A DNA stretch of 64,000 nucleotides from Candidatus Altiarchaeota archaeon (GTDB lineage: Archaea; Altiarchaeota; Altiarchaeia; IMC4; SCGC-AAA252-I15). Position 1 is the first letter of the stretch, and the number at the start of each line of letters is the position of its first letter. The position numbers and the translations under genes are program-made. Positions 2,138 to 32,011 of this stretch are shown piece by piece. The notes under the pieces are model-generated. The model was not told the DNA's origin. It saw nothing but the letters and a program-made list of their open reading frames with translations, and did no database searches. The DNA lies in contig JAZDMS010000023.1 of the NCBI GenBank assembly GCA_043800705.1, positions 32,001-96,000 on the forward strand, written 5' to 3'.

Positions 2138-2200
2138 TCATCAGCACTCATAAGCCTCATCATCGCCTTTCGGCTCAGCCATCTTGAGTCATCACGTGAT
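2138..2200 (-). ncRNA. Box C/D guide sRNA, predicted tRNA-Met(CAU) Cm34 guide (sR-tMet/sR49-like)
   Basis: Minus strand: AUCAC-GUGAUGA(C)-CUCAAGAUGG-CUGA(D')-GCC GAAA GGC-G-AUGAUGA(C')-GGCUUAUGAGUG-CUGA(D)-UGAAC; all four boxes perfect, guides 10 and 12 nt, intergenic. Confidence 0.9.
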
Positions 2201-2496
2201 CTATTGTTTGACGAGGCGGTTATATGCATAAGGGCAAGACACCCTTCGGGTTTCTCGCCCTTATCAACCCTACTCTTCCGACATGCCATCGCGGATGGCA
2301 TCGTTCACTAATGTGTTTTTCTATTGTTTGACGAGGCGGTTATATGCATAGGGGCAGGCACCTTTCAGGTTCCCGCCCCTATCACCCCTACCCTCCGGTA
2401 TGGTGCCTTCGGCACCATGAAAAAATCCCGTAGACGTATGCATCGGCAGAAGGACAGGCGCCCTCGGGTTCATTGTTTGACGAGGCGGTTATATGC
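2201..2496. repeat. Three perfect copies of 25-bp ATTGTTTGACGAGGCGGTTATATGC (2203, 2323, 2472) separating two homologous double-hairpin units
   Basis: Direct reading; the third copy is the last codons (AYNRLVKQ) of ORF 2470..2871; units carry covarying stems. Confidence 0.9.
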
Positions 2497-2871
2497 GTGC
2501 AGGACGAGGACGGCCTCTTCGAGTTGGGCGATGTTTACGGTCGTCGTCTTCTGTTCTATCGCCGGCTCAAGGAGCCTGTGCTGGACGCGGAACGGGCTCG
2601 TGCCGTCCTTGATCGTGTTCAGATTGTGGGTGCTGGTGATCTGGTTCAGCCTGTCCTTCGGCGCCTTCTGGAGGTATTGGACTGCCTCCTGTAGGTTGAT
2701 GAGGTGCTGGAGCATCTCCTCCTCGCCGCCGAATGCGGTCGCCAGCTCAAGCTGCGAGTTTGTGGTCAGCCTCCTGAGCTTCATCGAGACCAGCAGGTCC
2801 TGGAACGCAATCAATGTGTCCTTCACCGAGCATTCGGCCTCTTTTCGAGGCTTGGGTTTTCCCTCATCCAT
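2470..2871 (-). CDS. Hypothetical helical protein (133 aa)
   Basis: ORF 10 nt downstream of the PMM/PGM stop, preceded by GAGGGTG; no recognisable motif. Confidence 0.6.
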   Translation of the reverse strand: MDEGKPKPRKEAECSVKDTLIAFQDLLVSMKLRRLTTNSQLELATAFGGEEEMLQHLINLQEAVQYLQKAPKDRLNQITSTHNLNTIKDGTSPFRVQHRLLEPAIEQKTTTVNIAQLEEAVLVLHAYNRLVKQ

Positions 2872-31306: not shown

Positions 31307-32011
31307 CTATTCCTTCTTCTCCTCTTTCTTCTCAGCCTTTTTATCCTCTTTCTTCTGGTTCTCCCACGTCTCCTGGTAGGTGACGTCCGTCAGCTGCAGG
31401 AACTTGAAGGTTTCGGCGCTGAAGGATGCCTTCCTCGCAAGCAGGTTGCGGTCGTGGAATGCGGCCTTGGGAAGGCTCAGCGTGAGCTTTTTGCCTGCGA
31501 GCTTGTGCTCGAATCCGGCGGTGCTTTCGAAGTTGCGCTCGATTATGTAGTCTACTTTTTCCTCGTCGGATTTGGCCTTGTCCGCGACTTGTACGTCGAA
31601 TACGAGCGTCTTCCCGGCGAGCTCGTGGTTGAAGTCGACGCGAACCCTGCCGCCGGCGACCGTCTGCACCCTTCCGCGCATGTTGTCTATCTCGACAGGC
31701 ATGCCGGGGATAGGGTTCATCTTCTCCTGCTTGAAGAGCTTCAATGGGACCAGTTTGACCATGGCGGCGCTCTTCTGGCCGTAGCCCTTCTCAGGCGGGA
31801 TCTCGACGGTCTTCTTGTCGCCGACCTTCATATGCGCCAGCTCCTCGTCGAGGCCTTTTATGACCTGTCCCTCTCCGACCGCTACGTTCAGGGGCTTGTA
31901 GATCCTCTGGTTGTTGTAGATGTTCTCCTTCTTCGCGAGCTGCTCGTCTGTGGTGTCGAATATCTGGCCGTCTTTTATGCGTCCCGTATAGTTTATTTTG
32001 ATAAAATCCAT
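31307..32011 (-). CDS. Long-type FKBP peptidyl-prolyl isomerase (SlyD-like)
   Basis: INYTG..FDTT, VIKGLDE, IPPEKGYG, DFNHELAGKTL. Confidence 0.93.
   Translation of the reverse strand: MDFIKINYTGRIKDGQIFDTTDEQLAKKENIYNNQRIYKPLNVAVGEGQVIKGLDEELAHMKVGDKKTVEIPPEKGYGQKSAAMVKLVPLKLFKQEKMNPIPGMPVEIDNMRGRVQTVAGGRVRVDFNHELAGKTLVFDVQVADKAKSDEEKVDYIIERNFESTAGFEHKLAGKKLTLSLPKAAFHDRNLLARKASFSAETFKFLQLTDVTYQETWENQKKEDKKAEKKEEKKE

Follow-up and report, generated by a model that had tools for sequence, protein, structure and literature searches.

What produced the three identical 25-bp sequences, and the two different hairpin-bearing units between them, at the end of a small protein gene in a Candidatus Altiarchaeota archaeon? 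The window analysed here is a stretch of 64,000 nucleotides (nt) of contig JAZDMS010000023.1 (assembly GCA_043800705.1), and the locus in question (2139-2871) consists of a C/D box small RNA (sRNA), three direct repeats, two hairpin units and an open reading frame (ORF) of 133 amino acids (aa). The units are probably copies of a protein-less, non-autonomous mobile hairpin element that was inserted twice in tandem at the end of the 133-aa ORF. At the core of the element a variable, covarying top sits on an invariant 8-bp hairpin base (ATAAGGGC/GCCCTTAT); a pyrimidine tail comes next, and a second hairpin often follows. The first hairpin together with the tail, ATAAGGGC-variable stem-GCCCTTAT-CAACCC, is referred to below as H.

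The 25-mer ATTGTTTGACGAGGCGGTTATATGC is present as three exact copies at 2203-2227, 2323-2347 and 2472-2496, as an earlier sequence-only reading of this DNA had reported. It is found nowhere else in the window when up to three mismatches are allowed, and none of 100 shuffles gave a match (0 expected). The third copy, on the minus strand, comprises the last 8 codons (AYNRLVKQ) and the first stop-codon base of the 133-aa ORF (2470-2871, minus strand), again as claimed. Copies 1 and 2 are orphan copies of this gene end, and the stretch common to them amounts to 28 bp. The insertion point lies 25 bp before the end of the ORF, which has no Pfam family match and is represented by orthologues in genomes G007 (39% identity) and G019 (26%).

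The two units measure approximately 95 and 124 bp. In unit 1, hairpin H occupies 2228-2264 (outer stem ATAAGGGC/GCCCTTAT, inner stem covarying) and is followed by the conserved pyrimidine tail CAACCCTACTCTTCC at 2265-2279, by the second hairpin at 2283-2301 (ATGCCATC-GCG-GATGGCAT) and by T5 at 2316-2320. In unit 2, hairpin H occupies 2348-2382 (ATAGGGGC/GCCCCTAT), the tail CACCCCTACCCTCC lies at 2383-2396 and the second hairpin at 2400-2418 (ATGGTGCC-TTC-GGCACCAT). The second hairpins are of 8 bp each. Within the tail CAACCC is invariant, with CACCCC as the unit 2 variant (alignment A3). Both units adopt the double-hairpin fold that had been described for them, with RNA z-scores of -4.6 and -1.9 on the plus strand and -5.5 and -3.2 on the minus strand. 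An A6 run at 2420-2425, which reads as T6 on the minus strand, is likely to terminate the 133-aa ORF.

Hairpin H is not confined to this locus. The window's own genome (G000; 2.0 Mb, 43 contigs, 87.6% complete) contains partial copies of the units on six other contigs, as revealed by DNA search, and a motif search gave 53 loose matches, 9 of them with a full ATAAGGGC...GCCCTTATCAACCC hairpin. Two of these 9 are in the window, one each on contigs C19, C22, C29, C36 and C37, and two on C39. A covariance model built from an alignment of 11 copies matched the hairpins of unit 1 (model R1, E 3.1e-15) and unit 2 (E 3.6e-15), the latter with A-U to G-C compensated at pair 6-38. A covariance-model search had been proposed as a check in the sequence-only reading, and at a cut-off of E <= 0.01 this model found matches in 25 of the 49 genomes of the order, many of them less than 300 nt from a contig end. 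The exact H pattern is present in 5 of the 21 genomes of the family, where a reversed control gave 0 matches, and at least 115 named loci in a collection of species-representative genomes, mostly from DPANN lineages, carry it.

By record title, the matches listed include 44 from Woesearchaeota, 14 from Aenigmatarchaeota, 12 from Altiarchaeota/Altiarchaeales, 10 from 'uncultured Methanosarcinales', 8 from a single metagenome-assembled genome (MAG) of Methanobacteriota, 6 from Nanoarchaeota, 3 each from Micrarchaeota/Anstonellales and Pyrohabitans, 2 from Thermoplasmata, 1 each from Hydrothermarchaeota, Iainarchaeum and Bacillota, and 10 from unlabelled archaea. The 22 defining bases of H are identical across phyla. 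The Bacillota MAG (L124) is the only bacterial record among the matches listed; its 28-nt AT-rich inner part is not hairpin-like, and the match is possibly due to chance or to a mis-binned contig. Some copies of the type GCA|H, such as L119, may lie inside ORFs; hairpins there measure 30 and 33 nt, both divisible by three.

The homologues covary. In the alignment of 11 copies, pairing holds in 93% of cells; two-sided changes are seen at 5 pairs and purely one-sided changes at none. The covariation score was reached by 0 of 500 shuffles, and slid partners pair at 33-55%. Compensatory change had originally been proposed for three stems. At family level the proposal holds for the first hairpin and is weaker for the second: a stem of at least 8 pairs follows the tail at 27/140 sites, as against 5/141 random places and 17/136 left flanks, and the second hairpin is therefore a feature of a subset of copies. 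No described RNA family accounts for the units. Rfam 15 gave 0 matches at gathering score in the whole window, and at E <= 10 the matches overlapping the units within 1950-2600 were at chance level only (E 2.7-6.8). Exact H matches numbered 0 in IMG/VR viral contigs, and a full-text literature search for the motif strings returned only unrelated primers. In the portions covered of the literature on tRNA-intron mobility, on introns and hairpins of DPANN archaea, and on MITEs (miniature inverted-repeat transposable elements) and target-site duplications, H is undescribed; supplements fall outside this scope, and the MITE census PMC11602168 could hold H.

The arrangement seen in the window recurs. 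In window plus orientation, well-resolved copies read as an orphan gene end, the ATAAGGGC-hairpin-GCCCTTAT-CAACCC tail and a spacer, and then the same gene end with the intact gene. The junction is positioned exactly at the blunt base of the hairpin and the intact gene is on the tail side. With a repeat defined as a left-flank 16-mer that recurs on the right with no more than 1 mismatch, 43 of the 141 distinct sites carried one. The spacer is of 3-574 nt, and the length of the repeat has a median of 25 bp and, two tandem artefacts aside, a range of 17-59. These direct repeats are made of the end of the target gene, as att repeats are. In orphan copies the 10 nt or so next to the junction often contain small indels.

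At 23 repeat sites ARAGORN placed a tRNA at the copy on the right. In 18 of them the repeat consists of the 3' part of the tRNA in antisense; on one side it reaches the T-loop, or else the variable or anticodon region, and on the other it ends 0-8 nt past the 3' end. The 5 sense calls comprise L056, L065 and L153, where the 5' part of a tRNA-Ser is duplicated, L057, where the repeat is upstream of a tRNA-Arg, and L060, which looks like two neighbouring paralogous tRNAs rather than a true repeat. Protein gene ends are also targeted, in the window, on C37 and at several other sites. In an unbiased scan of 250 nt on either side of H, the tail side had 40 tRNA calls (31 in antisense, 9 in sense) and the blunt side 9, with 3 calls overlapping. 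A logo of the left flanks shows little conservation, and that little is due mainly to T-loop targets. T-runs and A-runs within 40 nt after the tail (26 and 17 of 141) differ too weakly to fix the transcribed strand. Tandem doublets at one junction are found in the window and at L008, L026, L057, L078 and L103.

Other repetitive structures were noted near these sites. At 8100-8647 of C39 (L008, L021, L022) tandem units of approximately 217 bp run into the contig end beside an intron-bearing tRNA-Thr; each unit consists of H, an orphan tRNA-Thr 3' end and some 50 nt of flank. At L189 (G007, contig C7, tRNA-Ile) a different hairpin (AAAAAG-GC stem-CTTTTTTG, i.e. A-run, GC stem, T-run) followed by an orphan tRNA-Ile 3' fragment occurs twice, at the T-loop position that is occupied by H in G000. 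Hairpin-plus-orphan units thus extend beyond the H family. Palindromes of the form TTTCTTTCTTT...AAAGAAAGAAAG recur downstream of tRNA genes at 58860-58950 of C22 and at 31480-31540 and 31740-31780 of C29, and hairpins of the form GYGGGGTC-GNA-GACCCCRC at these positions look like an acceptor stem joined to its own complement.

Comparison of orthologous loci, also suggested at the outset, shows a locus with 0 units. In G019 a C/D sRNA whose D guide is similar lies approximately 30 nt past the gene stop, and beyond it is the same bPH_2 membrane-protein gene as in the window. Since this orthologous locus is free of units, the units in the window are insertions, and since the G019 orthologue directly precedes the C/D sRNA, the end of the 133-aa gene natively abuts the sRNA. 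Two further loci of G000 are informative. The glutaredoxin-like gene on C37 is followed by one H unit, and its four closest orthologues have no H downstream. At the tRNA-Ile locus on C22 the flank beyond the orphan tRNA fragment aligns between G000 and G007; because it is conserved, the orphan and its flank represent the native state, and it is the segment next to the tRNA that came in later.

The sRNA itself (2139-2197, minus strand) has four boxes readable in the sequence, C at 2195-2189, D' at 2178-2175, C' at 2164-2157 and D at 2144-2141, with guides of 10-12 nt, and is the conserved neighbour in G019; its match to sR41 in Rfam (30.5 bits, E 3.3e-05) is under the gathering score of 54. It is a native neighbour of the gene end and lies outside the inserted units. 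On the minus strand repeat copy 1 reads GCATATAACC..., which probably holds the TATA box of the sRNA promoter. This assignment is based on G019, where an A/T-rich box precedes the sRNA with the same geometry; the A/T-rich box in the last codons of the 133-aa ORF is probably the sRNA promoter. A promoter and terminator scan of 1950-2600 showed nothing relevant, using a bacterial-type model whose range does not extend to archaeal promoters, and ARAGORN found no tRNA in the window. Between the sRNA and the bPH_2 membrane-protein gene, at 2047-2131, there is a 25-nt inverted repeat (80% complementary, arms 35 nt apart) in which GTCTTCGGTC is present twice; it is not a copy of H.

The stems of H are asymmetric between strands. 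When the inner stems of 81 distinct sequences were paired naively in window plus orientation, mismatches comprised 54 A.C and 7 G.T. At the first inner pair there were 37 A.C, 26 A-T, 9 G-C and 2 G.T. An A.C on the plus strand corresponds to a G.U or G.T wobble on its complement, so that the wobble pairs reside on the window minus strand. The bias points to a single-stranded form, as a palindrome acting in double-stranded DNA would show none. It belongs to the gene-end class of copies, since the intron subfamilies described below have perfect stems. Predicted folds of the two window units are also more stable on the minus strand, at -36.9 and -57.6 versus -33.3 and -45.7 kcal/mol as RNA, and at -13.5 and -15.9 versus -10.9 and -12.2 as DNA.

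Such features might also be expected of an array of small non-coding RNA (ncRNA) genes, in which each 25-mer would be a minus-strand promoter, each unit a separate structured RNA, and growth would have occurred by duplication. The minus strand of the 25-mer, GCATATAAC, is located some 27-33 nt before the C box of the sRNA, the compensatory changes conserve structure, the wobble asymmetry favours the minus strand, and the z-scores of that strand are low. We nevertheless consider such an array distinctly improbable. The TATA-like motif is specific to this locus and probably the sRNA's own; at other loci what is repeated is the 3' end of a tRNA or the end of another gene, with no TATA motif. The T6 run would fall about 45 nt past the putative minus-strand start of unit 2. 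Copies of H are found in both orientations to host genes and inside tRNA genes, and the units match no Rfam family. Furthermore, divergence of the units alongside 100% identity of the 25-mers is at odds with an old duplication, and the number of repeats equals the number of units plus one, as for insertions. The sequence-only reading had left a choice between separately promoted ncRNA cassettes and miniature hairpin elements inserted successively with duplication of the target. Its underlying observation is confirmed; the dispersed family, the unit-free orthologous locus and the repeat layout support its second reading and widen it, and the cassettes are unlikely.

Nor do the units appear to encode a protein. 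A 50-aa ORF at 2321-2473 (minus strand) runs through unit 2 and ends in the AYNRLVKQ of the repeat. Most likely it arose as a side effect of the gene-end duplication, and annotation could mistake it for a gene. The unit was rejected as a coding sequence, as the frame of this ORF has stops in unit 1 and other copies use other frames.

In other lineages H is found inside tRNA genes, in the sense orientation, with its blunt end 0-1 nt past the 5' splice site. For example, the flanks in tRNA-Arg L166 (CTTC|GG.U ... GAAG.AA|A) form, as judged by eye, a bulge-helix-bulge of canonical type at 37/38. At 23 sites the blunt end carries a sense-type T-loop motif; 3 of these, antisense sites of the repeat type, owe their match solely to the palindromic nature of the motif. 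Ten of the 23 combine a partner for the T-stem with a 3-nt bulge and a central helix of 4 bp (TTCG/CGAA or similar); they are introns of 41-57 nt at position 59/60 with H as the intron-side helix. Introns at 59/60 are known in ultrasmall (DPANN) archaea (PMC3239211, in excerpt). With the insert removed, ARAGORN calls a normal tRNA at L054, L079, L139, L161, L165 and L087. Over all 141 sites such removal led to solutions at no more than 14, and several of these are spurious; the low yield is due to the additional introns that many of these tRNAs contain. The same module thus doubles as a tRNA intron, in 10 copies of bulge-helix-bulge type; the window units, which are downstream of and antisense to a protein gene, are not introns of this kind.

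This raises the question of whether H is a cis-acting RNA signal, either a processing mark for the splicing endonuclease or a 3'-end stabiliser, which spread because it is useful and left the duplications as by-products. The position of the blunt end 0-1 nt from the 5' splice site in bulge-helix-bulge introns would suit such a role, as would the 22 bases identical across phyla and the wobble asymmetry, which fits RNA. So would four Woesearchaeota-type loci (L061, L092, L095, L120) where H is 1 nt upstream of the mature tRNA 5' end, oriented so that the leader contains the GGGTTG-hairpin; at L095 three hairpins form an array, spaced by 19 nt. By contrast, duplicated gene ends and tandem arrays are left unexplained, and the splicing endonuclease has no known need for a specific sequence in the source excerpts consulted. 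In the window and at C37, moreover, terminator-like T runs separate the host gene from H on the gene strand, so that H may not be co-transcribed with the gene. We regard a cis-acting signal as quite unlikely.

Near-identical copies of H are present at unrelated targets. At the C37 protein gene and at a tRNA-Leu of genome G008, H and tail are identical over 46 nt, and the repeats and spacers differ. Unit 1 of the window and the C22 tRNA-Ile copy share 88% identity over 74 nt, including the second hairpin, which is homologous in the two; read by eye, the C22 second hairpin resembles a tRNA-Ile 3' end together with its complement. At C37 the sequence after the 58-bp repeat is a diverged homologue of the gene end: the codons for DEEAL all differ at the third base, and the C-termini are GKALRRQ and NYALKK. 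It seems that the incoming DNA brought a foreign version of the gene end.

If the units are indeed copies of a mobile hairpin element, two different members would have been inserted successively at one point, 25 bp before the end of the 133-aa ORF, and each insertion would have left a further copy of those 25-28 bp. The ORF would thereby keep its last codons and the downstream sRNA its promoter. The element may act as a folded single strand, the wobbles being carried by the complement of the window plus strand, and the enzyme that moves it is presumably supplied in trans. How it moves is a matter for tentative suggestion. We would give a slight preference to a scheme in which copying or excision starts at the blunt hairpin base and proceeds through the tail into the adjoining gene end, and the resulting small product recombines, within a short stretch, into a homologous gene end. 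Such a scheme, although doubtful as it stands, would explain why polarity is fixed and repeat length variable, as well as the tandem arrays and the foreign gene end at C37. Transposition with a staggered cut that creates a long target duplication is rather unlikely; it better fits the target-specific repeats that near-identical cores carry.

The C37 gene end also resembles an incoming attP, and the units might be scars of larger virus or plasmid integrants that were later deleted, leaving attL, a stub with a terminal hairpin, and attR. The hallmark of archaeal integrative elements is a duplicated 3' end of a tRNA or other gene by which the gene is restored. Tandem integration is known (PMC8371274, in excerpt), and a published model ties such integration to tRNA disruption (PMC3293823, likewise in excerpt). 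None of the 43 repeat-flanked copies is a kb-sized element, the largest being about 0.6 kb, and no integrase or recurrent gene adjoins H. The lack of exact matches in IMG/VR and the near-identical cores at unrelated targets, each with target-specific repeats, likewise speak against scars of this kind, which are very unlikely. An integrase-encoding integrated element was rejected on similar grounds (inserts of at most 0.6 kb, no recurrent neighbouring ORF).

A trivial explanation would be an assembly artefact in which two strain variants with a single unit each were concatenated. The genome is a draft of 43 contigs, and 3 of its 9 H sites are less than 300 nt from a contig end, which indicates that H sites disturb assembly. 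Tandem doublets are present in other assemblies too, however, and we consider concatenation exceedingly improbable. The joining repeat of 25-28 bp is shorter than usual assembly words, and the junction from unit 1 through the repeat to unit 2 should thus exist in reads.

Several observations weigh against a mobile hairpin element. The tandem arrangement in the window rests on one assembly. Neither an excised form nor an empty allele of the same population nor polymorphism among reads was seen, within the coverage of one public DNA run (share 0.06; no RNA run listed) whose contigs span 1700-2095 and 2888-2975, with a gap at 2096-2887 that includes the units. By the 16-mer criterion 98 of the 141 sites have no repeat, and at 92 of 141 there is no ARAGORN tRNA nearby, so the context classes are based on a minority. 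Repeat lengths of 17-59 bp do not fit a fixed staggered cut, and the diverged gene end at C37 does not fit simple target duplication. The hairpin-plus-orphan layout may result from a general recombination process that is not specific to H. Finally, G000, at its 87.6% completeness, has no Y1 transposase and no match to RVT_1, the one family to which the search for reverse transcriptases was limited.

The search for an enzyme was extended to the neighbourhood of H and to the order. No element-borne protein was identified among 2359 ORFs around the loci; shared ORF clusters extend over 7 loci at most and, judged solely by which loci are listed, look like conserved neighbourhood. G000 encodes one tyrosine recombinase (Pfam Phage_integrase), on a contig other than that of the window, and no H-linked integrase. 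Y1 transposases are present in 17 of the 49 genomes of the order and are not associated with H (both in 8 genomes, H alone in 17, Y1 alone in 9, neither in 15). Three genomes of the order in which H was not found, G029, G023 and G012, are rich in Y1 (IS200/IS605) matches, with 17, 10 and 9.

Known classes of element were considered in turn. A palindromic element derived from IS200/IS605 was rejected, as there is no association with Y1, duplications are present, and no clear fixed tetra- or pentanucleotide is found left of the insertion. H does not qualify as a MITE, because only the blunt hairpin base is defined, the other end is variable and the repeats are of 17-59 bp. An origin by reverse transcription is unsupported, given that the repeats include genomic flank, no CCA is added and the incomplete G000 has no RVT_1. 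The 11-6-11 architecture of a Xer/dif site does not fit a hairpin of variable length.

On a wider scale, H could be a DNA-level mobile element of DPANN-type archaea with two outcomes, although we offer this as no better than a tentative proposal. After landing in sense in a tRNA loop, the hairpin would form the intron-side helix of a bulge-helix-bulge and the insert would survive as a new intron; after landing near a gene end, it would survive through duplication of the terminal 17-59 bp. The route by which archaeal tRNA introns originate 'remains open', in the words of an excerpted 2026 preprint on Asgard tRNA genes. In the present data a single conserved module takes the form of a spliceable intron at some sites and, at others, of an insertion outside genes accompanied by a duplicated gene end; it occurs in many small-genome lineages with few known transposases. 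The arrival of introns becomes a testable question, since the H module can be tracked, empty and filled sites can be compared and the substrate is defined (40-75 nt). If the proposal is true, it provides a concrete route to archaeal tRNA introns, to orphan tRNA fragments and perhaps to split tRNA genes, and it implies hairpin-directed insertion or recombination that known transposase families fail to explain. For annotation, H explains orphan 3' and 5' tRNA fragments, short spurious ORFs such as that at 2321-2473 (minus strand), and contig breaks. In the window, the 25-bp repeat preserves the ORF end and the sRNA promoter across two insertions and marks no new RNA genes.

Among known systems, MITEs, repetitive extragenic palindromic (REP) elements and IS200/IS605-derived palindromes are, like H, small, protein-less and dispersed; they share a hairpin with conserved base and variable top, strand-asymmetric mismatches and a frequent location downstream of genes. 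H differs in having no terminal inverted repeats beyond the hairpin and in duplications of 17-59 bp, as opposed to 2-10 bp or none. Archaeal bulge-helix-bulge tRNA introns are known at non-canonical positions, 59/60 in DPANN archaea among them (PMC3239211, in excerpt). At 10 of the loci analysed here the H module is the intron-side helix of such an intron. The window units differ from such introns in lying outside a spliced gene, antisense to the host ORF, and in being flanked by a 25-bp duplication. We know of no single hairpin conserved across phyla among described bulge-helix-bulge introns. Integrative elements of tRNA and gene 3' ends (PMC8371274 and PMC3293823, both in excerpt) resemble H in that a repeat of the terminal segment keeps the gene intact, in junctions at the T-loop and anticodon region, and in tandem occupancy of one site. 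The inserts of H are by contrast only about 50-250 bp, lack an integrase and have near-identical cores at many different targets. Integron attC sites likewise form an imperfect hairpin with a conserved base and a variable top, favour one strand, and are arranged as head-to-tail units with the junction at the base; H has no cassette genes, and to our knowledge the attC consensus motifs differ from it. Casposon target duplications measure 14-15 bp. Casposons (PMC5137440, in excerpt) share with H the site-specific insertion at gene 3' ends, a comparatively long target duplication and tandem arrays, and differ from it in being large and in carrying Cas1 and terminal inverted repeats.

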